From assembly GCA_963790305.1 (NCBI GenBank), contig CAWBOC010000010.1, positions 96,001 through 160,000 on the forward strand: DNA of 64,000 nt, given 5' to 3'. This DNA is from an uncultured Gemmatimonadaceae bacterium (GTDB lineage: Bacteria > Gemmatimonadota > Gemmatimonadetes > Gemmatimonadales > Gemmatimonadaceae). The notes beneath the pieces are model-generated. The model was given only the letters and a program-made list of their open reading frames with translations. It was not told the origin of the DNA and ran no database searches. Position numbers and translations under genes: made by a program. Position 1 is the stretch's first letter; each line of letters opens with the position of its first letter. This document shows positions 29,719 through 42,440 of this stretch, one piece after another.

Positions 29719-29850
29719 GGGTCAGGAGTCAGGGGTCAGGGATCAGGGGATGTCGGGGGAAGCGGTGCCAGGAGAGCGACGTGTCGTTCCCTCCTGCGAC
29801 CCAACCCCTGCCCCCCCTGATCCCTGACCCCTGACTCCTGACCCCTAGAA
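29713..29850. repeat. Family C palindromic heptamer element between convergent genes (likely bidirectional terminator)
   Basis: 37-bp perfect inverted repeat of AGGGGTC/AGGAGTC/AGGGATC units that includes both TAG stop codons. Confidence 0.9.
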
Positions 29851-32800
29851 ACGCCATTCCCGAATCACGAACGCGCCCAGGATGTTCTTGCGCGGCGGGT
29901 CCGCCTGGGCGGCGAGCGTCGGCTCACGGATGAGATACCGAGGTACGTAGCTCATCTCCAGGCGGAGCCCCTTGGGCATCCGGTGCACGAGACGAATACC
30001 AAACGGGTTCTTGTTCGCCGGCTGCGCCTGAATGGCGACGAACGTTCGGCTGCGATTGATGTACTTGCCTGCCTCGATCTCGGTGAGACTGAGCGAGCTG
30101 ATCACGCTATTCGACGACAGCTCCGCCGGGACGTCGGCGGGTGTGAGTCTGAACTCGTCCGTCCCTAACGAGCGCGCCGCGTCCTGCTCGAGCTCGTTCG
30201 TCAGCACGTCCAGCGCCGTGCCGGCCAGCTGACGCGTGGCAATGCTGGCCACCGCGCCCGCCAGCTCGCCACTCCCCGATGACTGTCCCGAAAGCGCCGA
30301 TCCCTGGGCGGTCAGCAGTGACGATGACGACTTGCCGAATGCGAGATAGCTCAGCAGGTCGGACTGCGAGATCGGCGGTTGCGCGGTGCTCTCGAGCGTG
30401 AGCTTCGGATTGCGCAGGGTTCCGCCGATGATCACCTGGATGTCGAGCGCCCCGGACCCCACGAGCGAGACCTCGTGGATGGCGGTGATCTGCAACATCG
30501 GGTTGATCTCGGGATCGCCAATGAAGGTCGCCGAGCCGCGGTTGATGACGAAGCGCCGGCCCATGAACTCGTACGTCCCCTGGTCGGCGTTCACCACCCC
30601 CTCGAGCGTGAGGGCCTGCTTGCTGCGGTCGACGTGAATCGTGAGTGCGCCATACCGCTCGGGCGTGTACACCTCGACGTTCGCCTCGGGCGATCGCACC
30701 CAGGTGTCGCGCGACACGTTGAGCGTGACATCCACGCGCAGGTTGTCCATCAGCGGTGACTGCCCCGGCAAGACCTCGCGCTCGGCGATGATCGAGGTAT
30801 CCACGACCGCGAAGACCGCGGGGTCATCGGCGTTGATGACATCCTTTCCGTCGGACTTCGGGATGTAGATGACGCCGTTGCGGATGTTCGCCGTCCCGGT
30901 GACGTACACGGCGTCGAAGGGTCCCTCGATGCCGATGTTCGCGTCCGCGTTGATGCGTCCCTGCTCGTTGTCGAGCACGCGTGCGTTCGTCGCCACCAGG
31001 CGCAGATCGAACGAGGGGCGCGTGAGCTCCGCGACGCCAATGCCGCCGCGGATGCGGATGGGACCGTTCGCGCGCCCAACGAGCGAATCGATGACAATGG
31101 TGTCGCCGTTGAGCCGCACCAGCCCATTGATGTCGCGCATCGTGACGCCGAGCGGCACGATCCGGAACGACGCGAAGTCGAGGGCCATCAGCCCCGTCAG
31201 CTCCGGCGAGCGTGGCGTGCCTCGCGCGGTGAGCACCCCCACCAGCTCCCCGCGCACCTCGCTGATCGCGTCGGTGAACTTGGGCAGCACATCCAGCGGA
31301 AGCGAATCGGCGCGGAGCTCGAATTCCAGCGGCCGGTCGAGCAGTCGCGGGCCGGTGACTCCGGCCAGCGCGAGGTTCACCGGGATGACGCCCTCGGCGA
31401 CCGCCACCGGCGTGCCGTTGCCCCGCAGCATTTCGGCCTGCGCGTCGAGCACTTCGTCGGAGTAGGTCAATCGCGCACGGACGTCCGGCACCACCGTGCC
31501 CCGATACGATACGCCCGTCACGCCTAACGCCGCACGCACTCGCGGGTCGCGCGTCGTTCCCTCCACCCGCGCCACGACCTGGAGCACGCCGGTCGCCTCG
31601 ATGTCCGACTGCAACAGCTCGACGACATGCGACACCTCGAGCCCGGAGATCTCGATGTCGAGACGGGCCGTCCCCTCGGTGGGCACGAGTCCATTCACGT
31701 AGATGCGGCCGCGCGTTCCCTGGCGAAGATCGAGCGCGAGAATCTCGACACCACGGCCTCCCCAGCGGACGGTGCTCGGACGCGCCGACACCCAGGTCGT
31801 CGTGTCGAATCGGAGGTGCAGTTGATCGAGGTGCACTTCGCGGTGATCGGTGTGCAGCGCGAAGCTGCCGCTCAATCGATAGTCATGCGACTCATGCTGA
31901 TGAATGGCGACGTCGATCTTGCCGGTCGTCCCGCGTGCCGTGATACGGGCTTCGACGCTGTCCAGCGCAAACCCCGCTGCCTGCACCGTGTCGAGCGAGA
32001 GCGCGGCGGCGATGGTGGCCTGTGGAGTTCGCGCGGCGATCCATCCATACTCCACCCGTCCGCGCCTGACGGTATTGCCGCTGATGGCGAGATTCTCCAC
32101 CGCCGCTCGCCCGCGCAGGTCGAAGCGCTGGAGGTTTCCCCGAATCGTGCCTGCCGCCGCAACGCTCCCGGCGAGCGAGTCGCGACGCACACTCGGAACC
32201 GAGTCGACTTTGAGCGTGGGCGCTGGAGTGCCCATTGCCGCCCGCTCGACTTCGGTCGCGCGCGCCACGAGCGCCGAATCCTCCCGCGCCTGCTTGATCG
32301 CCTTCATTCGGCGACCGGGGCGAGGGGCGACAATGGCCGTGTCCTGTCCCGGCAGCCATCGCGCCAGTCCGGAGATCGAATCCACTGTGACGCGGTACGA
32401 GAGCTCGCCGGTGCGCTCGGCGACCAGCCCGAGCGTGCCGCGAATGTCCGCTCGCGCGAATGAGGTGTTCACAGTGACCGGCTGCACCGTCGCCATGCCG
32501 TCAGCGATGGTCACGCGTACCCGGGCCGAGTCGAACGACACGCTATCAATGGCCGAGCCGCGAAGATCGGCAGCGATCGTCGCGCGCATCGTGCGCAGAT
32601 CGCTCCCCGCCCCGCGAATGCTCGCGACGCCACTGAGCGAGGTCCGCGGCAAGGCGGTGGCGACCGTCTGCAGGTTGAAAACGGTGAGCGTTGCCTGCGC
32701 GTCGTAGCTTGGCGTTCCCTGCATGTCGAGCCGCGCCACGGTCAGCAGCTTCCCGCCGTCAGGGAGCCGCAGATCTGCCCGGACCGACAGATCATTCAGG

Positions 32801-34431
32801 CTGCCACGGGCGCGAATGGGTCCGACGGCACTGCCCTGTAGCCCCAACCCGGGTGCGAATCGGCCGACGGTCACCAGCGACAGCGGCCGTGCGCGCAAAT
32901 CGACATCCATCCACGTCGTTCCGCGCATCGCCACGACCCCACGCCCGGTGAGGTGTGACCGCGCGCCGCGGTCGACGTGCTCGAGATCCATGGTCGCCGT
33001 TAGGCGCGTCGTCGTGGAGCCGTCGAGCATGGCCGTGCCCGTCACGATCCCACCGATCGGGAGATTGGGGACCGCGATGCGGGCCAGATCCACCTGCACC
33101 GGCGCGAGTCGCAGGCGCAGTCCGCGCGCACGCACTTCGCCTTCACCGAAGCCGACCAGACCACGGGCAACCACGCGGCTGCGCCCATTGACGGCATCGT
33201 CGAACGTGACGTCGCCGTCGACCGTCATCGCGCTCGTGGTGCCATCGAGCGACGCGCGTCCCCCGATGGTGCCGCGGCGGGGAATGTCGAGACTCGGAAC
33301 GAGCTGCTCGATGAGGCGGGTATCGAAGCTGGCGAACGTGAGGTGCGTGTCGTGAAAGCGCGCATCGGTCTCCGTGAGGGTGAGTCCGAAATCGCCCCCG
33401 ACCCGTGATGTCCCGGACCGAATGTCGGCGTTGCGGGCGACGTAGTCGCTGGGACCCTCATCGCGCATGACCATCTGGAAGTCGAGCGTACCACTGCCCT
33501 GCGATGGCAGTCGCGGATAGAGCCACCGGAGGTCGGCGAGTGCGATCGGAGCACCCTGAAGGGCGAGGCGCAGCTCCTGCGTGTCGATCCCGTATCGCCC
33601 GTCGCCGGCGATGTTCGAGCCAGGGAGTACGATCTTCACGTCATCGAAGCGCAGCGTGTCATTAATGACGTAGAACGTCCCTTCGACATCGCGAATCTCC
33701 GCGACCGGTGGCCGGAAAATGGCCGCGATTCCGCTGAGCGCGGTGACCTGGATGGCGATTCCGCTCGAGTCCGGATCTTCGAGGCGAAGCCGCGGCATCG
33801 TCGTGTTGATCTGCCGGAAGTCCATCACCTGCTGATAGCCCTTGCGTGCGCGGACGACGTGCTGGCGCGTGCCGCCCTCGAGAGCGGTGGCGATCACGCG
33901 CTCGCGAGCGGGTCCGACCAGGTCCCCGTCAGGCTTCCAGGGTGTGCGCACGATGAAGCGCCCACCGATGACTTCGACGTCGTTGAACGCAACCCAATCA
34001 CCGAAGCCTGGGCCCTCATTCGGTTTGTCGGGAGTCGTGTCTTCGGGGAAGATCGACTCGAAGTTCCAGTCTTCGTCCTCGAGCTTGTCGAAGATCACGA
34101 GCGGGCGCACGAGGCGAAGGCTGTGCAGCTGGATGCGCTTCCGCGCGAACGCAATGAGGCGATAGTCCGCGACCACGGTGTCGGCGGTCACGAATGGTCG
34201 CCCCGCGGTATCGGCGATCGAGAAGTCGGTCATCACGACGCCATCGAGCAGGTTGCCGCCAATGCCGCCGATGCGAACCTGCCCGTGCACCATTTCGCTC
34301 AGCGTTTGAAGCGTGAAGCGACGCACTCGCTCTCGGCCGAAGTCCGTCATCGTGAACAGCAGCACGCCCGCGACGGTGAGCACCGCGATCGCCCCAATGG
34401 CGAGACCGATTCCAACCAGAACGCGCTTCAT
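29845..34431 (-). CDS. tamB: Translocation and assembly module TamB-like protein
   Basis: About 1530 aa, N-terminal anchor, beta-taco-like repeats, C-terminal DUF490-like region (GTLRNPKLTLES...SQSDLLSYLAFG); adjacent to an Omp85 gene. Confidence 0.82.
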   Translation of the reverse strand: MKRVLVGIGLAIGAIAVLTVAGVLLFTMTDFGRERVRRFTLQTLSEMVHGQVRIGGIGGNLLDGVVMTDFSIADTAGRPFVTADTVVADYRLIAFARKRIQLHSLRLVRPLVIFDKLEDEDWNFESIFPEDTTPDKPNEGPGFGDWVAFNDVEVIGGRFIVRTPWKPDGDLVGPARERVIATALEGGTRQHVVRARKGYQQVMDFRQINTTMPRLRLEDPDSSGIAIQVTALSGIAAIFRPPVAEIRDVEGTFYVINDTLRFDDVKIVLPGSNIAGDGRYGIDTQELRLALQGAPIALADLRWLYPRLPSQGSGTLDFQMVMRDEGPSDYVARNADIRSGTSRVGGDFGLTLTETDARFHDTHLTFASFDTRLIEQLVPSLDIPRRGTIGGRASLDGTTSAMTVDGDVTFDDAVNGRSRVVARGLVGFGEGEVRARGLRLRLAPVQVDLARIAVPNLPIGGIVTGTAMLDGSTTTRLTATMDLEHVDRGARSHLTGRGVVAMRGTTWMDVDLRARPLSLVTVGRFAPGLGLQGSAVGPIRARGSLNDLSVRADLRLPDGGKLLTVARLDMQGTPSYDAQATLTVFNLQTVATALPRTSLSGVASIRGAGSDLRTMRATIAADLRGSAIDSVSFDSARVRVTIADGMATVQPVTVNTSFARADIRGTLGLVAERTGELSYRVTVDSISGLARWLPGQDTAIVAPRPGRRMKAIKQAREDSALVARATEVERAAMGTPAPTLKVDSVPSVRRDSLAGSVAAAGTIRGNLQRFDLRGRAAVENLAISGNTVRRGRVEYGWIAARTPQATIAAALSLDTVQAAGFALDSVEARITARGTTGKIDVAIHQHESHDYRLSGSFALHTDHREVHLDQLHLRFDTTTWVSARPSTVRWGGRGVEILALDLRQGTRGRIYVNGLVPTEGTARLDIEISGLEVSHVVELLQSDIEATGVLQVVARVEGTTRDPRVRAALGVTGVSYRGTVVPDVRARLTYSDEVLDAQAEMLRGNGTPVAVAEGVIPVNLALAGVTGPRLLDRPLEFELRADSLPLDVLPKFTDAISEVRGELVGVLTARGTPRSPELTGLMALDFASFRIVPLGVTMRDINGLVRLNGDTIVIDSLVGRANGPIRIRGGIGVAELTRPSFDLRLVATNARVLDNEQGRINADANIGIEGPFDAVYVTGTANIRNGVIYIPKSDGKDVINADDPAVFAVVDTSIIAEREVLPGQSPLMDNLRVDVTLNVSRDTWVRSPEANVEVYTPERYGALTIHVDRSKQALTLEGVVNADQGTYEFMGRRFVINRGSATFIGDPEINPMLQITAIHEVSLVGSGALDIQVIIGGTLRNPKLTLESTAQPPISQSDLLSYLAFGKSSSSLLTAQGSALSGQSSGSGELAGAVASIATRQLAGTALDVLTNELEQDAARSLGTDEFRLTPADVPAELSSNSVISSLSLTEIEAGKYINRSRTFVAIQAQPANKNPFGIRLVHRMPKGLRLEMSYVPRYLIREPTLAAQADPPRKNILGAFVIREWRF

Positions 34432-34432
34432 A

Positions 34433-36689
34433 TCAGAACGCCTGCCCAATCGAGAGGTGGAGCGTCAACCGGTCGGCCACCTGCCGCCATCCTTTTTTCT
34501 TGGCATCCTCGAGCGGATCGTAGGCCTTCGTCTGCTGGAGAGGGACGATGCGACGCACGCCATTGTCATCGATCACCTCGGTGACGATCGGAAGATTCTC
34601 GGCCAGTCGAGGCTTTACGCCGAGGTCTACACGAATGGGTCCGACCGGCGTCGTGTACCGAAACCCGAAACCGGGTGTGACCGCGCTCGTGCCGCGCGTG
34701 AGCGTTGAGACATCGCCCTCGCCGACGACGGCGGCGTCGACGAAGACCGCCATGTCGAGGGAGCGCCAGATCCCGAAGCGATACTCGACGCTGCCCTCGA
34801 GCAGGGTGCTGCCACCGACGGGGCGAGGCTCGAAGTCGCTCGAATGGGAGGGCAGTAGCTTCCTCGCAGCTGCCGCTCATCAGCTCCTCGCGCGTGCACA
34901 GCGGAGGAAGCGTGGTGGTGTCGTTGACGACCCGGGGGTTCAGCACCTTGCCCGGATCGAAGGTAAGCACGCGAGGTCCGAGCTGATTCTCGCCGTATCC
35001 CCGAACCGACTGTGATCCCCCCGCGTAGAAGCGCTTTCGGGGGTGCAGGATCAAGTTCGTGGTCGACGCCTCTCCGGTGAGCGCTTCCGACGCACTCCCG
35101 AGCGCTTTGACCCAGCCACCACGCACGCGCCAGGAGAGCACGGCGTGGCGGCCGAATGGATGGTACCGGCGATACTCCCCCGACACGCGATTGTAGCGAT
35201 AGTCGGACATGGTGAACGCCGACGCGTGCTCGACGTCGGCGCGCGCGAAATACCCGCGGCTCGGGTCGAGCGGGTCGTCGCCGCGATCCGTCAAAAGCGA
35301 CAGCGCAAGCGGCGACATCCGTTGACGCGCACGCAGCGCCACGATATCGCTCGGATCGCAAATTCCGAAGTTCTCGCAGAAATACACGTCGCTGGCTTCG
35401 ACCCGCGTCAGCTCGAACCGATACGTCAGGCTGATCGGTGCCCGCGTAGCGAGCATGCGCGTGAACGTCGCGCTCGTGCCGAATCCCTTCTCGACGAAAA
35501 TCCCCGGAGCGCTGCGGCAATGCGTAAACGCACTCAGGCCCAGTGTATTCCGGGGAGACTGGAACCACGGCTGTGTAAAGTCGGCGCTCGCCTGCCAGGT
35601 GGGCGAGAAGTACTGGTCGGCCTCCCGGTCCGCGACCGGCCGGCGCAGGACTTCCTGAAATGGGAAGCGCGCGTTCAGCGAATTGGCCAGGAGGTTCCCG
35701 ACCGCCGCGCGGAAATCGAGCCGCCTCCCACCGCCGAACCAGTTGTATCTCGTGAGGCGGCCTTCGACCTGGCCGAATTCCAGTGTACTGAATCCCGCGC
35801 TCGCGCGAATCTCGCGCAGCGGGGCCTCTTGTACCGTGATCTCGATGTGCTTCACGCTGTCGCCCTGTGGCGGGACGATGATCACCGCGCGCCGGAACAG
35901 GTTCGACTCGTACAGATTGCGCTGGCTGGTGGTGATCTCGTTCCGCTTGTAGAGACGGCCTTCCCGCAGGGTAAGCGAGTTGCGAATGGTCCGTTCGGAC
36001 ACGCGCTCATTGCCGCTGATGGAGATTTGTCCGATGGTGGTGGCCCATTTCGGCTCGACGGTCGCGCGAATGCTGGCAGACTTCGCGGCCGTATCGACCA
36101 CGATCGTGTCGACGCGCGCGTCGGCGTCTCCGTATCCCTTGTCCCAAAGAGCCGACTCGAGAAAGAAGACGCTCGAGTCGAGCGCGATGAGGTTGAGCGG
36201 ATCGCCGGCGCGCACCTTCATCGCGCTCCGCACTTCGTTGTCGTTGAGCACTTCGCCGGGACGCTCGACGCGGATCGAGCTCACGCGAGTCGGCGGCCCT
36301 TCAGTAACTCTGAACTCGACGCGTACCCCCCCTTTTTTCGGGGTAACTACGGTATCGACCTGGGCATCGCGCCATCCGCGCTTCCAGTAGAACACGCGGA
36401 TGCGAAGCATGTCGCGCCGCAGCTCGGTGCGATCGAGGTAATGCCTGTCCTTGAACAGACTCCAGTTGCTCACCCAGCAGAAGGGCGTGAGCAGCAGACT
36501 GCGGCAGCGCGTCTTTTCAGTCTCGATGCTCTCTTCGAGGTCGTCCTTGCTCACCGACTCCACGCCCGCCCACTTCAAATCCTTGACCTCGGGCGCTTCG
36601 CGCTCGTCTCGCGCCTGCGCACCCATCGGTGTTCCGCCGGTGAGGCAGACAAGCAATGCGATGAGGCTTGCCAGGGCGAGGCGAGTCAT
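34433..36689 (-). CDS. Omp85 (TamA/BamA-like) protein with POTRA domains, interrupted by a +1 frameshift near 34843
   Basis: POTRA motifs (ISGNERVSERTIR) and FYAGGSQSVRGY; the C-terminal barrel GFGFRYTTPVGPIRVD...HLSIGQAF lies in the shifted frame. Removing one base restores LPSSDFEPRPVGGSTLLEGSVEYRF. Confidence 0.85.
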
Positions 36690-36725
36690 GGGGTCCGGAA
36701 ATGCAAGCCCTGCGCCCAAGAAAAT

Positions 36726-36810
36726 GAGGCGCTAGAGGCGCTAGAAGCGCTAAAGGCGCTGGAGGATAACCCCCAGCGCCTCTAGCGCCTCTAGCGCCTC
36801 TAGCGCCTCA
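36726..36810. repeat. Family A palindromic 9-mer element downstream of rho
   Basis: About four GAGGCGCTA-type units, a short loop, then about four TAGCGCCTC units. Confidence 0.85.
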
Positions 36811-36814
36811 GCCG

Positions 36815-38302
36815 TTACAGCCCCGCGAGCAGCGCGTCGTTCCCCGCCGTGCCGGCGATGCGCTTGATCAACCACTCCATCGCCGACTGCGGCGGCATCT
36901 GTTGGAGACCGCGGCGCAGCGTGTAGACGTTGTCCAGCTGATCCGGACGGAAGAGCTTCTCCTCGCGCCGCGTTCCACTCGTCGCGATGTCGATCGACGG
37001 GAAGATACGCTTCTCGGACAGTGACCGATCGAGCTTGATCTCGGAGTTGCCAGTCCCCTTGAACTCCTCGAAGATCACGTCATCCATGCGCGAGCCCGTC
37101 TCGACGAGCGCGGTGGCGATGATCGTCAGCGAACCGCCGCCGTGCTGCGGTGCCACCGAGCGCGCCGATCCGAAGAAGGCCTTCGGGCGCGCCATGGCCG
37201 TCGCGTCGAGACCCCCTGAGAGGGTGCGACCGGTGCCACGCTCCACCGTATTGTGTGCCCGCGCGAGCCGCGTCAACGAGTCGAGCACGATCACGACGTC
37301 CTTGCCATTCTCCACCAGCCGGCGCGCGTGCTCCAGTGTCATCTCCGCGACATCGACGTGTCGCTCGGCGGGCTGATCGAAGCTCGACGCGATCACCTCA
37401 CCGCGCCCCCACTCGATCATCTCGCTGACTTCCTCGGGGCGCTCATCGACCAGCAACACCAGCAGCGTCGCCGTCGGATGATTGATGGCCACACCCTCCG
37501 TGATCGCCTGCAGCAGCATCGTCTTTCCGGCACGCGCAGGCGCAACGATCAGCGCGCGTTGGCCGAACCCGATCGGCGCGATGAGGTCGATGGCGCGCCG
37601 CGTGAGCTCTGGGCCCCCCTTCGCGGGCTTGCCCGTCTCGAGGACGAGTTTGCGCTCCGGATAGGACGCGACGAGCGACGAGAATTCCGGCCGGCGCAGT
37701 GCCAACGTGGGATCGTCACCATTGATCGTCCGCACCTCGGCCACCGCCATACGTCCGCGATGGTCGCGACCGACCGTCGCGTTCACCATGTCGCCGCGGC
37801 GAAGGCCGAGCTGCCTGACGAGGTGCGGCGGCACGAAGGCATCGGCGGGGGTGGGGAGATAACTCTCCGCCGCCCGGCGAATGAAGCCGCCGTCGCGTGA
37901 CGGGTCGAACCATCCTTCCGCATCGCCCTCGGCGACAATGACCGCTGGCACCGGAGCGCCGCCGCCATGCTCGGGGCGAGGACCGCCGCGTCCGCGACCG
38001 CGTCGTCCACGCCGTCCATTCTGACCAAATCGATCACGCCCACCCTGGTGCTGCGGTTGCTGACCGGGATGTCGCGTCGGAGGGGGACCGCCCGGCGTGG
38101 GGACGTTCTCACTCGACGGAATGCTAGGCGGCGCGGTCGGAGCGGGCGTGCCATTGTCGCGCTCCGGCGTATCGCCGTCCGGTAGCGCTGACGCGTCGTC
38201 ACGGTAGGGATTCACTTCCATGTCATTGGCCTCGAAGGTGGGACGAGGCTGCGCTGGGCGCGGGCCGCGCCCACGACGGGGCGGGCGTCTGCGTTCGTTC
38301 AT
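36815..38302 (-). CDS. rho: Transcription termination factor Rho with a low-complexity N-terminal extension
   Basis: APIGFGQRALIVAPARAGKT, LVDERPEEV, LDSLTRLARA, TLSGG, ETGSRMDDVIFEEFKGTGN. Confidence 0.95.
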   Translation of the reverse strand: MNERRRPPRRGRGPRPAQPRPTFEANDMEVNPYRDDASALPDGDTPERDNGTPAPTAPPSIPSSENVPTPGGPPPTRHPGQQPQHQGGRDRFGQNGRRGRRGRGRGGPRPEHGGGAPVPAVIVAEGDAEGWFDPSRDGGFIRRAAESYLPTPADAFVPPHLVRQLGLRRGDMVNATVGRDHRGRMAVAEVRTINGDDPTLALRRPEFSSLVASYPERKLVLETGKPAKGGPELTRRAIDLIAPIGFGQRALIVAPARAGKTMLLQAITEGVAINHPTATLLVLLVDERPEEVSEMIEWGRGEVIASSFDQPAERHVDVAEMTLEHARRLVENGKDVVIVLDSLTRLARAHNTVERGTGRTLSGGLDATAMARPKAFFGSARSVAPQHGGGSLTIIATALVETGSRMDDVIFEEFKGTGNSEIKLDRSLSEKRIFPSIDIATSGTRREEKLFRPDQLDNVYTLRRGLQQMPPQSAMEWLIKRIAGTAGNDALLAGL

Positions 38303-38688
38303 GCAACCATGTGTGTCGTGGTGAATTCTCGGTGGACACGTCCATGCGGATCGTGTCCCGTACTTCCTATGGAGCTTGTCGTGAGCGCGCCGCTGCACGC
38401 GGCTGTTCCAGTCGCTCTGGTGCATGGCCGTCATGGCGACGCACCGGTCCTGCTTCCGTGCTGTTGTCGACGACGTCGCGGAACCACGGACAACTCACGC
38501 GCTTCCGGCGCTTGCTCAGCGCAACCCGAGCGGCTCCGCGCCTGCCGTGCGGCGCTGCTCGTCCACTTTGGGATGGCCGACGCGCACCGGCGGGTCAGCC
38601 ACCACCAACTTCACTTCCCAGGTCGATTTACGCAACTGCCAGCTTCCGGGCCCTCTCCAGGGGCGAGAAGTGTGCCCAAGGCACCCCC

Positions 38689-39695: not shown

Positions 39696-40091
39696 CTACG
39701 CGCTCGCGTCTCTCACTCGCGGCGCCATTTTCGCCAGCTCACCGGTGAGCTCCTGCAGCTCGAACGGTTTGTGAAGCGCCTTGCAGCCGCACGCCTCGAT
39801 GAGCTCGAGCGCGCGCTCACTGGTGTCACCAGTGGTGAAGAGCGTGCGATAGCGCAGGTGCGGCTGGATCGATGCGGCGAGCTCGAACAGCACGTCCCCA
39901 CGCAGGTCGGGGATGCGGAGATCGAGCACGAGGAAGTCGAAGTGTTCAGCGCGGAGGAGCGTGTGGGCCTGCTCGCCAGCCTCGACGGCAATGACGTCAT
40001 AGCCGGCGCGCCCGAGGGCGATCGTCAGCGCACGACAGATCGTCGGTTCATCATCGACCACGAGTACACGCAACCGTTCATTGAACCGCAT
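39696..40091 (-). CDS. Single-domain response regulator (receiver only)
   Basis: VLVVDDEP, LVLDLRIP, TTG, HKPF; start overlaps the AraC gene end. Confidence 0.88.
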   Translation of the reverse strand: MRFNERLRVLVVDDEPTICRALTIALGRAGYDVIAVEAGEQAHTLLRAEHFDFLVLDLRIPDLRGDVLFELAASIQPHLRYRTLFTTGDTSERALELIEACGCKALHKPFELQELTGELAKMAPRVRDASA

Positions 40092-40875
40092 TCGTTCGCT
40101 CTCCTCGCCGTGCCAGCCGCGCCGTGAGCAGCGCGACGAACTCGTCTGGTGGTACACTTTGCCGCAACGTGGTCGGCGTGAGCCCCGTGGCTGCTCGAAC
40201 CTGCCGTGCGAACAGCCGAGCCGATCCGTAGCCGAGCCGCTCGACCACCTCGTCCAGCGAGCGTCCCGGGTCCTGCATGTAGAAGTACGCGCGCAACAGT
40301 CGCGCGCCCAGCACCAGCATCCTTGCCGAAGCCACTCCGGCGCGTTCGAGCCACCGGTCCAGCGCCCTGCGGTTCATCGCCGCGGCCTTGGCGAGATCGT
40401 TCACATCCCTGAACTGCTGCGGTACCCGAAAGAGCCGCTCGACGGCTCGCGCAAGCTCGGCGGGGACAGTCGCGAGCGGTCGCGCGAGCAATGCGAGCAC
40501 CGCATCACTCATCGCGTACGCCGGCTGCCGCTCCAGGAGATCGCGGAAGCGGCGCGGCTCGTCGTCGAAGTTCCGGAGGACGACGTGCCGCACGCCCAGC
40601 TTTGCCAGCTCGACCGTCGCCCCGAGCGTTTCCGGAGCGAGGATCGTGTAGATCACTACTGGGAGCGAAGGGAAGTCCCGGATCAGACTCCGGAGCTCGT
40701 CCAGTCGCACCGTTCCCTCGGCCCGTGGATCGGCAACGAGCAGATCCACCGGCTTGCGTCGCACTTCGTCCTCGAGCTCATCCCACCGATCGACGGTGAT
40801 GACGTGGTGCTCGCGGCCGAGGACGATTCGCAGGTGGGACAGCAGAAGGGGAGGGAGACGGACGACGACGTTCAC
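40078..40875 (-). CDS. AraC-family regulator with a degenerate receiver-like N-terminal domain
   Basis: C-terminal double HTH (VNDLAKAAAMNRRALDRWL ... SLDEVVERLGYGSARLFARQVRAATGLTP); N-terminal DLLVADP...PVVIYT. Confidence 0.85.
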   Translation of the reverse strand: MNVVVRLPPLLLSHLRIVLGREHHVITVDRWDELEDEVRRKPVDLLVADPRAEGTVRLDELRSLIRDFPSLPVVIYTILAPETLGATVELAKLGVRHVVLRNFDDEPRRFRDLLERQPAYAMSDAVLALLARPLATVPAELARAVERLFRVPQQFRDVNDLAKAAAMNRRALDRWLERAGVASARMLVLGARLLRAYFYMQDPGRSLDEVVERLGYGSARLFARQVRAATGLTPTTLRQSVPPDEFVALLTARLARRGERTNAVQ

Positions 40876-40889
40876 GCCATCGGATTACG

Positions 40890-40954
40890 TGTCCTAAAAG
40901 TGCACATCGATGTCTCAAGATGTGCGTTTACCGATGGACGCGTAACCGTACCTT
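40890..40954 (+). promoter_or_regulatory. Tandem operator (21-bp period) plus candidate promoter of the 44-aa peptide gene
   Basis: TGTCCTAAAAGTG (40890) and TGTCTCAAGATGTG (40911), then TTTACC-16-TACCTT. Confidence 0.55.
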
Positions 40955-41004
40955 GCGTGACAGTTGCAACCCCCCAGTTACAACTCTTCCCGCGAGGTCA
41001 GATC

Positions 41005-41139
41005 ATGTCCCGCCGCCGCCTCTCTCTCCTGGTGCTCTCCCTCCTGACGTTCGCTGTCGCTGCCTGCGCTGACGTGACTGCGCCGGAACCGAGCAGTGAT
41101 TGCGCGATCACCTCAGGCTCCGCCGGCAAAACCTGCTGA
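41005..41139 (+). CDS. 44-aa micro-lipoprotein / secreted peptide precursor with a C-terminal Cys loop
   Basis: GAGGT RBS; MSRRRLSLLVLSLLTFAVAA-CADVTAPEPSSDCAITSGSAGKTC; lipobox VAAC; own intrinsic terminator. Confidence 0.8.
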   Translation: MSRRRLSLLVLSLLTFAVAACADVTAPEPSSDCAITSGSAGKTC

Positions 41140-41160
41140 CATTAGTTCGTTCCAATCTTC

Positions 41161-41193
41161 AGGCCGCGGACTGCCATCCGCGGCCTTTTTTTT
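41161..41193 (+). terminator. Intrinsic terminator after the peptide gene
   Basis: AGGCCGCGGA-ctgcca-TCCGCGGCCT 10-bp stem followed by a T7 run. Confidence 0.9.
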
Positions 41194-41198
41194 CAGGG

Positions 41199-42440
41199 CT
41201 ATCCAGCGACTCCGGCCAGCTCGCGCATGCTACGAACCGCGGTTGCCACGCGTTCCACTTCGGGCGTGGGCTCGGGAGCATTCGCGATGATAACCACTCC
41301 CGCCTGGTCGAGCGACTGAAGACTTTGCTCGGCGCGGAAGAGTGCCTGGTTCATCCCGTGGCGCTCCGCCAATTCAACGGCGCGCAGTAACGCAGCTCGC
41401 GCGGCCGAGACGTTGCCGAACATTCGGTAACCCTCGCCAACATAACAGTAGTAGTGACACGCCAGCGTCGCCGGTAACGTCGCGTCCGCAAGCTCACGGC
41501 GATACTGCTCGAATACCGGCTCCCGCCCGTCGACGGCAGCGCATTCCAAGAGGTTGATCGTCGCCACCCAGCGCGTATGCTGCTCCTGAGCAGTGGCAGC
41601 GAGGATCAGATAGGCATCACGCGCGGCGTCGCGCAGTCCCAGCTCGAAGAACGCGGCGGCAATGTCACCCAGCACGCGGTCGCGCGAGGCGGCGTCCGTG
41701 TATCCTTCGAGAGCCTGGTATCCCAGCGTGACAGCGAGGTCGTATTGTCCACGCCGGAACGCGATGTCTGCACGGTCGTGCAGGGCGATCGAGCGGATCT
41801 CGCCACACCGGTTGGCATCTGCCTCGCGGATCGTATCATCGAGAAGCGTTTGCGCGTACGGCAGATTGCCACGCTCGATCGCAATCTTCGCCTCGTTGAC
41901 TCGCGCTCGCAGCACGTTCACGATGTCGCTCGCCATCGCGGCCGCGCACCCCGCACGCGCATACGCCGCCGTCGCTTCATCCCATTCAGCGAGGGTACGG
42001 AGACACGCACCGAGCTGCATGTTCGCGGCGATCACGATGTCGGCTTCCTCGACCGGATGCGCGTGCGCGATCACCGTTTCATGGACGTCGGCCGCCAGCT
42101 CCCAGCGTCCCTCGAACTGGAGCGCCCGACCATAGGCGAGGAGCCGCGGTGCAATCAATGGCACGCGGACCGTTCGTGAGGTTTCCATCGCGTCCACGAT
42201 GCTGGCGAGGATAGACCGTGTCGCCGAACCAAGATCAATGGCTTCGATGGCCTCGCGCACCGCCCGCAGGCCCCACGCGTCGGCCGCGACCACGCTCGGC
42301 CCTTCGACGAGCCATGCATCGAAGAGACGCAACGTGACCAAACCGGCGCTCGTCAGGCGCCAGTCCGCGCTGCCTTCCTCGGCGCGCGCAAGCGCTTCGA
42401 AGAACGGCAGGTGCTGGAGATTGGGCTCGCTCATGGTCAT
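41199..42440 (-). CDS. Cytoplasmic tetratricopeptide-repeat protein (about 410 aa) with an uncharacterised helical N-terminus
   Basis: Repeated TPR-like helices (LGACLRTLAEWDEATAAY, RADIAFRRGQYDLAVTLG, IAAAFFELGLRDAARDAY, VGEGYRMFGNVSAARAAL); no signal peptide or evident HTH. Confidence 0.8.
   Translation of the reverse strand: MTMSEPNLQHLPFFEALARAEEGSADWRLTSAGLVTLRLFDAWLVEGPSVVAADAWGLRAVREAIEAIDLGSATRSILASIVDAMETSRTVRVPLIAPRLLAYGRALQFEGRWELAADVHETVIAHAHPVEEADIVIAANMQLGACLRTLAEWDEATAAYARAGCAAAMASDIVNVLRARVNEAKIAIERGNLPYAQTLLDDTIREADANRCGEIRSIALHDRADIAFRRGQYDLAVTLGYQALEGYTDAASRDRVLGDIAAAFFELGLRDAARDAYLILAATAQEQHTRWVATINLLECAAVDGREPVFEQYRRELADATLPATLACHYYCYVGEGYRMFGNVSAARAALLRAVELAERHGMNQALFRAEQSLQSLDQAGVVIIANAPEPTPEVERVATAVRSMRELAGVAG

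Follow-up and report, generated by a model that had tools for sequence, protein, structure and literature searches.

A predicted 44-residue prolipoprotein fills the variable peptide slot of a conserved REC/AraC/TPR cassette in Gemmatimonadales

In the 64,000-nucleotide stretch of DNA analysed here (the window), from an uncultured Gemmatimonadaceae bacterium, a gene for a predicted micro-lipoprotein occupies the "peptide slot", the variable position in a cassette conserved among Gemmatimonadales. From left to right, the cassette reads as a stand-alone receiver (REC) gene and a receiver-like/AraC gene that both point leftward, the rightward peptide gene, and a leftward gene for a cytoplasmic TPR protein, and these genes are inherited and duplicated as one unit. 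Since the micro-lipoprotein fills the peptide slot, it is a candidate signalling peptide in a Gram-negative phylum. The locus carries these features:

39696..40157, minus strand: stand-alone receiver (REC) protein, 153-aa ORF as listed (Pfam Response_reg, 1e-15)
40078..40875, minus strand: receiver-like domain plus AraC-type HTH regulator, 265 aa, divergent from the micro-ORF (Pfam HTH_18, 2.9e-12)
40890..40920, plus strand: tandem half-sites TGTCCTAAAA / TGTCTCAAGA, 21 bp apart, candidate operator of the AraC-type regulator
40949..40955, plus strand: conserved TACCTTG block (TAnnTTG), possible promoter element
40994..40997, plus strand: Shine-Dalgarno-like GAGG, 7 nt 5' of the ATG at 41005
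41005..41139, plus strand: micro-prolipoprotein CDS, 44 aa plus stop (ATG 41005, TGA 41137-41139)
41005-41064, plus strand: predicted signal peptide, part of the micro-prolipoprotein CDS
41065-41067, plus strand: lipobox Cys21 codon (lipobox V-A-A-C)
41065-41136, plus strand: predicted mature 24-residue peptide, with Cys33 and C-terminal Cys44
41161..41193, plus strand: intrinsic terminator with a 10-bp stem, 6-nt loop and T-run (hairpin and fold test)
41199..42440, minus strand: cytoplasmic all-helical TPR protein, 413 aa, convergent with the micro-ORF (Pfam TPR_12)

Translation of 41005-41139 on the plus strand gives MSRRRLSLLVLSLLTFAVAACADVTAPEPSSDCAITSGSAGKTC, a product of 44 aa. Sequence inspection showed an N-terminal basic n-region (RRR), then an uncharged h-region and a lipobox with Cys21, which is the pattern of a lipoprotein precursor (basic n-region, uncharged h-region, lipobox Cys at 15-35). 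Every element named in the original prediction, from the ribosome-binding site, n-region, h-region and lipobox to the 24 mature residues with Cys33 and Cys44, is present in the sequence. A GAGG or GGAG lies 5-8 nt 5' of the micro-ORF start at all 14 of the printed loci, and the host genome encodes Lgt (PF01790, one match, 8.2e-51) and signal peptidase II (LspA; PF01252, two tandem matches, 3.2e-37 and 2.4e-32). The ORF had also been described as the tail of a 352-aa shadow ORF. Indeed, it is in frame with the ORF at 40081-41139, itself antisense to the real AraC-type gene, and relatives do not preserve this long frame, their open frame measuring just 58-112 aa. That the micro-ORF is uncalled held as well: among the proteins listed, identity to it does not exceed 82%, whereas the TPR protein next to it has a 100% match in the collection. 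Gene callers overlook this gene, which went uncalled here while its neighbour was called.

A short lipobox ORF by itself is not beyond chance in this GC-rich host genome, in which a loose lipobox regex matched 326 ORFs of at most 60 aa, so the case that the micro-ORF is real comes from conservation and not from the lipobox pattern alone. Strong matches or orthologues were present in all eight same-genus genomes. The dN/dS calculation that the prediction had proposed gave 0.09-0.53, below 1 in all 28 genome pairs, and variable sites were most frequent at the third codon position (17, 13 and 30 of 44 at positions 1, 2 and 3). Residues D23, T25, P27 and C33 are invariant and C44 is kept in at least 90%; pN/pS reached 0.58 in the loop versus 0.17-0.21 in other parts of the micro-ORF. 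Length changes among relatives preserve both the frame and the final Cys, and the micro-lipoprotein family covers two families of the order, with its residues conserved and its DNA diverged. That the ORF arose by chance or marks a small RNA has next to no probability: lipobox-like short ORFs are common and the first 45 nt at the 5' end show nucleotide-level conservation, yet the codon-position pattern, the dN/dS values, the preserved frame and the residues kept across two families all argue against it, as does the 5' RNA fold (z = -0.68, not above shuffles), which likewise gives no structural cause for the silent-site conservation. Judged by its pattern of conservation, 41005-41139 is a real gene for a predicted 44-aa prolipoprotein.

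The stem plus T-run noted 3' of the ORF proved to be the gene's own terminator. The hairpin at 41161-41186 has 10 pairs, eight of them G-C, with the T-run directly after, and its folding (z = -3.09) was equalled by one of 200 shuffles. Counted without a shuffle control, a hairpin of -12 kcal/mol or below follows the ORF in 28 of 32 cassettes, nine of which have a T-rich tail.

Each of the 51 cassettes that we inspected (the profile-hit set, the profile-miss set and the window, hand-chosen and not random) holds a 39-63-aa lipobox ORF between the divergent receiver-like/AraC gene and the convergent TPR gene. The gap held a lipobox ORF at each of the 33 loci (31 distinct places) where both flanking genes are present, and also in 19/19 cassettes among 20 further TPR loci that were picked because the peptide profile had missed them. 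Conversely, 68 of 74 near-full-length micro-ORF matches lay within 400 nt of a TPR match, with a median gap of 29 nt. The AraC, REC and TPR genes flank the ORF at every locus of the genus, as they do, at 29-39% identity, in distant genera; the REC gene adjoins at every genus-level locus and at 15 of the 20 further loci. Paralogous copies within one genome have the same flanking genes, and the cassette recurs up to five times in a genome. The TPR family was found in 153 of 401 phylum genomes, at up to five copies per genome, and in 0/16 genomes of genus g47, whose genomes in the sample are closed and single-contig. From these sequence matches the cassette appears widespread in Gemmatimonadales soil bacteria, across two families of the order. 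The peptide gene is its only non-regulatory gene. Pfam-scanned neighbours in the window were TamB, Omp85/POTRA, Rho, a small TPR protein, REC, AraC, TPR, a desaturase, a deacetylase, PBP, DUF1501 and DUF1800; a histidine kinase beside the ORF was found neither among these ORFs nor at related loci, which gave REC, AraC and TPR homologues only.

The regulators themselves combine familiar domains. The REC translation shows the motifs VVDDE, LVLDL, FTTG and HKPF, and its true start is probably further in than that of the listed 153-aa ORF. In PDB profile searches, residues 8-123 of the AraC-type regulator matched the CpaE receiver-like domain (8e-6) and HupR1, and residues 141-240 matched AdpA, VirS and GadX. 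In the receiver-like domain, D49-P50 and S70-L71-P72 are invariant and strand 1 lacks the acidic pair.

Upstream of the micro-ORF, a generic repeat finder returned nothing in the intergenic region; the tandem half-sites emerged only with a fixed-period scan and a motif count. The arrangement TGTCNNAANA-N11-TGTCNNAANA occurs at only two sites in the 4.3-Mb genome, one being 40890-40920 and the other, at G000:C5:344632-344662, lying upstream of a 575-aa lipoprotein. Repeats with a 21-bp period scored 13-16/18 in 14 of 33 rows, a level reached by 0/200 shuffles, and in relatives the second repeat ends at an equivalent position, 62-93 nt 5' of the ATG. Within the genus of the window itself, the direct repeat is degenerate (9/18 matches, ungapped, reached by 72-166 of 200 shuffles). 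The TACCTTG block is kept at all genus-level loci and recurs as TACCTTG at L012 and L013 and as TACGTTG at L015; by comparison with the -7 motif of Bacteroidota, it may be a promoter element.

The TPR protein has no visible N-terminal signal peptide, and its AF2 model (pLDDT 92.5) is an all-helical TPR fold. The best prokaryotic fold matches were NprR (Z 22.2), Rap of pLS20 (21.6), RapH-Spo0F (21.1) and RapI (21.0), but eukaryotic LGN outscored them (Z 25.7) and OGT, MalT and APC subunits reached 19-21, so that the modelled fold does not discriminate an RRNPP-type receptor from other TPR proteins. Sequence profiles gave generic TPR matches only (RapJ at E = 0.005; the LcrH/SycD model at 15.6 bits versus a cut-off of 104.8). 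A complex prediction for the TPR protein with the 44-aa precursor, run without controls, returned a score of 0.00 and a mark of 0.32, which speaks neither for nor against binding.

The search for small lipobox ORFs by profile, also proposed at the outset, bore out a family: the A1 profile found 237 database proteins at E <= 0.01 among 559 candidates, 41-73 aa in length, and the ORF is conserved at homologous loci. The 120 proteins listed carry few source names, being labelled "hypothetical protein" or as generic lipoproteins. A lipobox followed by exactly two later Cys, 7-11 residues apart, is present in all 121 proteins (the window's and the 120 listed), the lipobox as scored with a PROSITE-style pattern written as a regex, and 119 of the 121 carry the neck. 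In the window's peptide the Cys spacing is C33-x10-C44. The Cys loop that the original prediction emphasised is thus real for this peptide and its clade but not for the whole family: 34 of the 51 cassettes have it and 17 do not. The loop is clade-specific; the universal elements are the lipobox, the T-[AG]-P neck and a short tail that varies. The mature part spans 17-41 residues in the family, and the C-terminal tail is its variable part, differing even among paralogous cassettes within one genome; in the relative L070 the tail is a tandem repeat, ESQGSNN-V-ESQGSNN. The N-terminal neck of the mature 24-residue peptide, C-A-D-V-T-A-P, is generic, since the form C-[AS]-D-x-T-[AG]-P is carried by 17 of 495 candidates in the host genome and also heads larger lipoproteins, the profile matching through its positions 1-31 within ORFs of 300-1500 aa.

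Known families gave little for the peptide. Pfam and NCBIfam scans returned no match above cut-off; a Pfam scan at E <= 10 gave only a PEP-CTERM noise match, with no MgrB and no entericidin, and the LptM model reached 11.5 bits, below its cut-off of 27.7, with the match confined to the signal peptide. A protein atlas held only unnamed "hypothetical protein" clusters (best score 0.91, low recognition), and the host genome has no paralogues of the micro-ORF beyond signal-peptide-level matches. A limited literature search on Gemmatimonadetes small lipoproteins/TPR and on RRNPP found no description of the peptide family or the cassette.

We tentatively favour, at somewhat less than even confidence, the reading in which the peptide is the cassette's cognate regulatory ligand, by analogy with RRNPP systems. 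Judging from sequence features, Sec would export the 44-aa precursor, Lgt would acylate Cys21 and signal peptidase II would cut, leaving a 24-residue lipopeptide whose C33-x10-C44 pair may close into a disulphide loop in the periplasm. The AraC-type regulator would bind the 21-bp-spaced tandem half-sites upstream and drive the peptide gene. The TPR protein would have the peptide as its cognate ligand, the active form being either the processed C-terminal tail after release and re-uptake or the unexported precursor, and would modulate the receiver or AraC proteins, closing a loop of feedback or autoinduction. The fixed place of the ORF between three regulator genes favours a role as ligand or signal; this much of the proposed lipid-tethered loop ligand stands, although the loop is not universal. 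Against the ligand reading, no importer, peptidase or other protease was found linked to the cassette, and the peptide and TPR genes are arranged convergently. Moreover, because the organism is diderm, a re-imported signal must leave its lipid anchor and cross two membranes.

The known RRNPP(A) systems (Rap-Phr, NprR-NprX, PlcR-PapR, PrgX-cCF10 and AimR-AimP) likewise pair a small gene, encoding a propeptide of roughly 40 aa that Sec exports, with an adjacent gene for a cytoplasmic all-TPR protein, involve receiver-domain partners (compare Rap acting on Spo0F and ComA) and come as several paralogous cassettes per genome, with different peptide tails and a variable C-terminal part; Rap-Phr and other Bacillota cassettes work by a similar feedback or autoinduction logic. 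In contrast to those systems, the host phylum here is diderm, and the peptide gene runs toward the TPR gene and away from that of a separate AraC-type regulator (a different order from rap-phr operons). In addition, an HTH domain is absent from the TPR protein, all propeptides are lipoprotein precursors, and the sequence-profile link to RRNPP families is not significant. The available text of PMC9765709 counts 211 of 2,734 RRNPPA propeptides as predicted SPII/lipobox substrates, and that of PMC11343458 records tandem propeptides in RRNPPA systems. RRNPP(A) is described as a Firmicutes/Gram-positive group in the sections available from PMC10075063, PMC9765709 and PMC12998947; within the searched text of the first two, Gemmatimonadota are not mentioned and Gram-negatives are not discussed, the one match being a reference title.

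More doubtfully, the cassette could be the first case, within a Gram-negative (diderm) phylum, of a family of peptide-pheromone/TPR-receptor communication systems, one that uses lipoprotein-type propeptides: a lipid-tethered precursor would be cut behind the T-[AG]-P neck, and its short clade-specific tail, disulphide-cyclised in many clades, would be read by a cytoplasmic Rap-like TPR protein acting on the stand-alone receiver and the receiver-like AraC activator, with several orthogonal channels per genome. Ribosomal peptide signalling with cytoplasmic TPR receptors is presented, in the literature as far as sampled, as a trait of Bacillota and their mobile elements, and a conserved multi-copy peptide/TPR/AraC/REC cassette would open the question of TPR-peptide signalling for a poorly studied Gram-negative phylum. 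The set of parts is small and testable: one 24-residue peptide, three soluble proteins and one operator.

A related logic is known from type III secretion, where the pairs IpgC-MxiE and SicA-InvF consist of a TPR chaperone and an AraC-type activator, and a secreted protein titrates the TPR protein, coupling transcription to export. The cassette shares with these pairs the combination of a TPR protein and an AraC-family activator, and its secreted protein would titrate the former. It differs in that secretion-system genes are missing, the substrate would be a 44-aa Sec/SPII precursor and the LcrH/SycD score is far under its cut-off, as given above.

The main rival, unlikely but appreciable, is that the peptide acts in the periplasm as a feedback or sentinel element like MgrB or NlpE: switched on by the AraC-type response regulator and lipid-anchored, it would modulate an unlinked histidine kinase that feeds the REC proteins, its disulphide reporting periplasmic redox or lipoprotein-sorting state. 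MgrB, as described in the excerpt available from PMC8404706, is a 47-aa membrane-anchored protein of the PhoP regulon that inhibits PhoQ and depends on periplasmic C28 and C39, a C-x10-C spacing identical to that of the window's peptide. Both would be envelope-anchored peptides of 44-47 aa with two periplasmic Cys, and the gene in each case is apparently under a response regulator; the operator-like repeats upstream and the receiver-domain proteins of the cassette fit this reading, which suits a diderm cell and makes cell-to-cell signalling and re-import unnecessary. On the other hand, the anchor would be a lipid rather than a transmembrane helix, the peptide has no sequence match to MgrB or any Pfam family, no histidine kinase belongs to the cassette in the window or at related loci, the Cys pair is missing from 17/51 cassettes, and the tightly linked cytoplasmic TPR gene, which abuts the peptide gene, is left unexplained. 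Such an analogue of MgrB or NlpE with a lipid anchor would represent a new class of small regulators in the envelope.

Rather improbable is that the peptide is a regulated envelope micro-lipoprotein of the ordinary kind, a lipopeptide with a structural, protective or surface-active function whose gene is simply a target of the neighbouring regulators. AraC-type regulators are often divergent from their targets; in addition, larger lipoproteins share the neck, and the second operator-like site precedes the 575-aa lipoprotein. Entericidin A/B and LptM/YifL are also lipoprotein precursors of about 40-70 aa, but no such family model matched above cut-off and their genomic context is different. Moreover, an ordinary lipoprotein would hardly be expected as the sole non-regulatory gene of a unit duplicated up to five times per genome, with tails that diverge between paralogues, and 17-41 mature residues are very few for a structural protein.

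The original prediction had also pointed to the signal peptide as a source of pheromone. In such a scheme, a site-2 protease would free a hydrophobic hepta- or octapeptide (about LLTFAVAA) after the SPII cut. This we regard as quite improbable. The enterococcal precedents, cAD1 and cCF10, are pheromones from lipoprotein signal peptides (PMC4173765, in the text available), and they share an LspA-processed lipobox precursor and an RRNPP-type receptor logic with the proposed system; their precursors, though, are full-size lipoproteins whose mature part is irrelevant to signalling, whereas here the mature part is 24 residues and conserved. The signal region is unusually conserved within the genus (codons 1-15: pN 0.038, pS 0.088), but the low pS continues across the intergenic region into the AraC gene, so it reflects constraint on the nucleotides rather than a signal at the peptide level. 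Conservation also extends to the neck and the Cys pair of the mature part. Within the ligand reading, the variable tail and its tandem repeat in L070 point to the tail rather than LLTFAVAA as the putative signal.

The further suggestion of a RiPP-like precursor, with Cys residues modified by a dedicated enzyme, found no support. Although the peptide is short, contains Cys and has a leader-like N-terminus, that leader is a typical lipobox signal; from 29.8 to 51.8 kb of the window, the ORFs scanned with Pfam include no maturase, radical-SAM, cyclase, peptidase or ABC-exporter gene (three had no Pfam match); and the genes conserved beside the ORF across cassettes are regulators only, so this origin can be given almost no weight.

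The window's close relatives come from soil metagenomes. A scan of genome contigs named as carriers uncultured Gemmatimonadaceae MAGs and one MAG labelled Actinomycetota, only close relatives being named because a narrow alignment was used. In soil RNA-library runs, contig depth over the TPR gene was near zero, from which absence cannot be read. The 5' 100 nt of the micro-ORF were covered by contigs 90-95% alike in two of four such runs, which we take as a hint of expression; one of these contigs extends into the loop codons of a relative. The contigs carry no strand or end information and may include DNA.

The 44-aa prolipoprotein ORF first noted from sequence alone (the micro-ORF) lies among the following features:

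29845-38434, minus strand, upstream: TamB (1534 aa), an Omp85/POTRA protein (717 aa) and a Rho protein (539 aa)
Behind the AraC-type gene: canonical stand-alone receiver (REC)
Left of the micro-ORF, divergent: AraC-type regulator, 265 aa, C-terminal half HTH (Pfam HTH_18, 2.9e-12)
40081-41139, plus strand: 352-aa open frame with the micro-ORF as its 3' end, an antisense shadow of the real AraC-type gene
41005-41139, plus strand: micro-prolipoprotein coding sequence, ATG to TGA, translation MSRRRLSLLVLSLLTFAVAACADVTAPEPSSDCAITSGSAGKTC
41161-41186, plus strand: terminator hairpin, 10-bp G+C-rich stem followed by a T-run, fold z = -3.09 versus shuffles
Right of the micro-ORF, convergent: TPR protein, 413 aa, no visible signal peptide

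Farther downstream in the window are a fatty-acid desaturase, a polysaccharide deacetylase, a class-A PBP and a DUF1501/DUF1800 pair.

All elements that the original prediction had listed for 41005-41193 were present: a ribosome-binding site (GAGG, 7 nt 5' of the ATG), a basic n-region (RRR), an uncharged h-region, the lipobox V-A-A-C with Cys21, a 24-residue mature part with Cys33 and a terminal Cys44, and the stem with its T-run. The ORF was also correctly described as the tail of a 352-aa shadow ORF, a frame open for just 58-112 aa in relatives. It appears to be uncalled in this genome, as had been claimed, because no listed protein was more than 82% identical to it while its TPR neighbor was in the collection at 100%. 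The lipobox pattern by itself was not beyond chance: a loose regular expression matched 983 ORFs in the genome, 326 of them of 60 aa or less. In a GC-rich genome this pattern alone is insufficient, and it is conservation that sets the micro-ORF apart from chance. Among 60 relatives searched, each of the 8 genomes from the same genus (8/8) had a strong full-length match (E from 1e-17 to 2e-11; a contig end interrupts one of them), and other genera gave weaker ones. The dN/dS check proposed with the prediction gave 0.09-0.53 in all 28 pairs of the eight complete genus-level sequences, variable sites at codon positions 1, 2 and 3 numbered 17, 13 and 30 of 44, and the frame and final Cys were maintained through length changes in relatives. 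These data showed that the micro-ORF is a genuine gene for a lipoprotein-type peptide and is conserved; that it is no gene at all is hardly conceivable.

The small-ORF profile search that had also been proposed recovered a family. A profile of 12 peptides, run against a 5.8-billion-protein collection, gave 559 candidates, 237 of them at E <= 0.01. The 120 family proteins among the matches listed were 41-73 aa long; those named by their source were "hypothetical protein" or carried JGI labels such as these (Lpp, LolB, "predicted small secreted protein"), the NCBI-named ones being from Gemmatimonadaceae MAGs. Together with the window peptide, 121/121 had the lipobox pattern and exactly two further Cys, spaced 7-11 residues apart (8 in 93/121), and 119/121 had the neck C-[AS]-D-x(1,2)-T-[AG]-P after the lipobox. 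Pfam and NCBIfam scans of the window peptide gave no family match, and it has no place in any curated family. Judged by its sequence features, it is predicted to be a lipoprotein precursor of the general bacterial type. The genome encodes Lgt plus two tandem LspA genes (PF01252), which lie side by side at G000:C9:60874-61826 in the window's own genome. The signal peptide and neck (C-[AS]-D-x-T-[AG]-P) also head far bigger lipoproteins, for example at G000:C5:863555 (minus strand). Profile matches to positions 1-31 fell inside ORFs of 300-1500 aa in a 401-genome phylum sample, and the neck was found in 17/495 loose lipobox candidates of this genome; this segment may serve as an N-terminal module or sorting signal of lipoproteins that is typical of the phylum.

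The micro-ORF kept its position between the divergent AraC-type gene and the convergent TPR gene in every genus-level locus, in distant genera and in a second family, with identities as low as 33% (AraC) and 29% (TPR). In each of the 33 loci that had both neighbors, a small lipobox ORF occupied the gap; these loci are 31 distinct places, L024 being the same as L015 and L026 the same as L019. The cassette otherwise consists of regulators only. In PDB profile searches, the HTH half of the AraC-type protein matched AdpA, VirS and GadX, and its N-terminal half was receiver-like (CpaE receiver-like domain, 8e-6; HupR1); the phospho-acceptor position of this half carries an invariant D-P, and its strand 1 has no acidic pair. 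From the best 90 peptide-profile matches in the 401-genome sample, 74 were near full length, and 68 of these lay within 400 nt of one of 150 listed TPR-family matches (median gap 29 nt); the other six may adjoin TPR genes that are broken or were not listed. The TPR family occurred in 153/401 genomes (family f1, 49/93; family f2, 93/166; few elsewhere), with up to five copies per genome, and the Cys-loop peptide profile matched 120/401. Paralogous copies within one genome had the same arrangement around each, showing that the cassette was duplicated as one unit. The 60-relative, 401-genome and adjacency counts include unpublished genomes G015 and G217, and the TPR count also G102; no conclusion hangs on any of these alone. 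At locus L045 (G242:C10), the TPR gene seems fragmented, with no match reaching E <= 1e-30, and a long tail extends the slot ORF to 63 aa. Locus L058 (1152-4014) carries the same cassette in a MAG labelled "uncultured Actinomycetota": its AraC-type protein is near-identical to the window's by eye, its micro-ORF ends ...CPVTSGTGTRKDC, its TPR gene falls into two ORFs (256 and 225 aa), and the label or binning looks wrong.

The Cys loop is clade-specific. At 20 extra TPR loci, taken from genomes or places without a peptide-profile match, the AraC gene was present in 19, and in all 19 a lipobox ORF of 39-54 aa filled the slot; the Cys pair occurred in just four of them. The others ended in short hydrophilic tails, such as ...AC followed by TRTDATGPSDQ..FEGQGANN or by TNPTGPKPAGD..SSGV. 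Counting the window, the loop was present in 34/51 cassettes and absent from 17/51, in a non-random sample of which one set was picked by profile match and the other by profile miss; clade-specificity does not depend on L014, a loop-less cassette from unpublished G015. All slot peptides share the lipobox and a T/G-P neck, and all end in a short tail of variable sequence. This C-terminal tail differs between clades and between paralogues, and within the genus it was the fastest-evolving part (pN/pS: tail 0.58, signal 0.17, neck 0.21). The slot peptide at L070 (G380:C3) has the tandem tail ESQGSNN-V-ESQGSNN, and its sister cassettes have single-copy ends such as ..ETQGSNN, ..EGMGSNN and ..EGQGANN.

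Many cassettes have a pair of direct half-sites, repeated at a 21-bp period, 5' of the micro-ORF; tandem half-sites 21 bp apart are the classical AraC-family arrangement. They matched each other at 13-16 of 18 positions, a score reached by 0/200 shuffles in 14/33 rows; the second ended 62-93 nt 5' of the ATG, and clades had the core TGTC-N2-AAAA in common. The window genus has a degenerate repeat, TGTCCTAAAA / TGTCTCAAGA, with 9/18 ungapped matches, which is not above shuffles. Just two sites in the 4.3-Mb genome fit TGTCNNAANA-N11-TGTCNNAANA, one of them at window 40890-40920. The other, at G000:C5:344632-344662 (L081, minus strand), is about 100 nt upstream of an ORF for a lipoprotein of 575 aa, which contains the motif HEYGH (HExxH) and matches no Pfam family; this may be a second target of the regulator, and the lipoprotein is possibly a protease.

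The AF2 model of the TPR protein (pLDDT 92.5, pTM 0.85, about 21 helices) gave LGN/Pins as top Foldseek match, with further matches to MalT domain III, Rap of pLS20 and NprR. VIA rescoring gave Z 25.7 for LGN; the best prokaryotic chains were NprR (22.2), Rap of pLS20 (21.6), RapH-Spo0F (21.1), RapI (21.0) and RapF-ComA (20.5), and OGT, MalT and APC subunits scored 19-21. Sequence profiles gave generic TPR matches only (RapJ, E = 0.005). The modeled fold is compatible with an RRNPP-type receptor without singling it out.

By analogy, we tentatively favor, at somewhat less than an even chance, a cassette that works on the same principle as Rap-Phr and the other RRNPP systems: the AraC-type regulator would bind the half-sites and control expression of the peptide, which, as such or after processing, would be the ligand of the adjoining TPR protein, and the TPR protein would act on the receiver proteins. 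The literature reports that 211/2,734 RRNPP-type propeptides are predicted lipobox/SPII substrates (PMC9765709) and that tandem propeptides are known in RRNPP-type systems (PMC11343458). The cassette resembles those systems in architecture and logic but differs in gene order, in its separate AraC regulator and in its diderm host; because of these differences, and because the TPR fold is non-discriminating and both the ligand role and peptide import are putative, it is not assignable to RRNPP. Literature searches, including the text of RRNPP surveys, found no description of this cassette.

The main rival, a periplasmic feedback or sentinel peptide, is rather unlikely; it would require no re-import across two membranes. 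MgrB, a 47-aa inhibitor of PhoQ from the PhoP regulon, has essential periplasmic C28 and C39 with the same C-x10-C spacing as the window peptide (PMC8404706); an MgrB-like role leaves both the tight TPR linkage and the Cys-less cassettes unexplained. A plain regulated envelope lipopeptide seems improbable, and a pheromone cut from the signal peptide, for which Enterococcus offers a precedent (PMC4173765), quite improbable. The RiPP-like precursor of the original prediction did not hold up and can practically be set aside, because there is no maturase gene among the Pfam-scanned neighbors.

Within the genus, a zone of low silent-site divergence covers window 40480-41050. pS was 0.088 in micro-ORF codons 1-15 vs 0.58 in codons 16-33 and 0.61 in the TPR gene; it ranged from 0.15 to 0.30 in the AraC gene's N-terminal half, and the 129 nt between the two divergent genes were almost invariant. 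Simple 5' RNA structure does not account for this zone.

Soil RNA-library runs contained 5-9% of the sampled words of window 39700-42440. In four runs from four studies that were compared with the window, contigs 90-95% alike, from close relatives, spanned REC, AraC and the intergenic region, and in two of the four they also covered the 5' 100 nt of the micro-ORF (run X2, record 15, 40746-41104; run X7, record 18, 40850-41103), a hint of expression from contigs that lack strand and end information and come from libraries possibly containing DNA. The X7 contig continues for 134 letters, the start of which is identical to the loop codons of the related locus L005.
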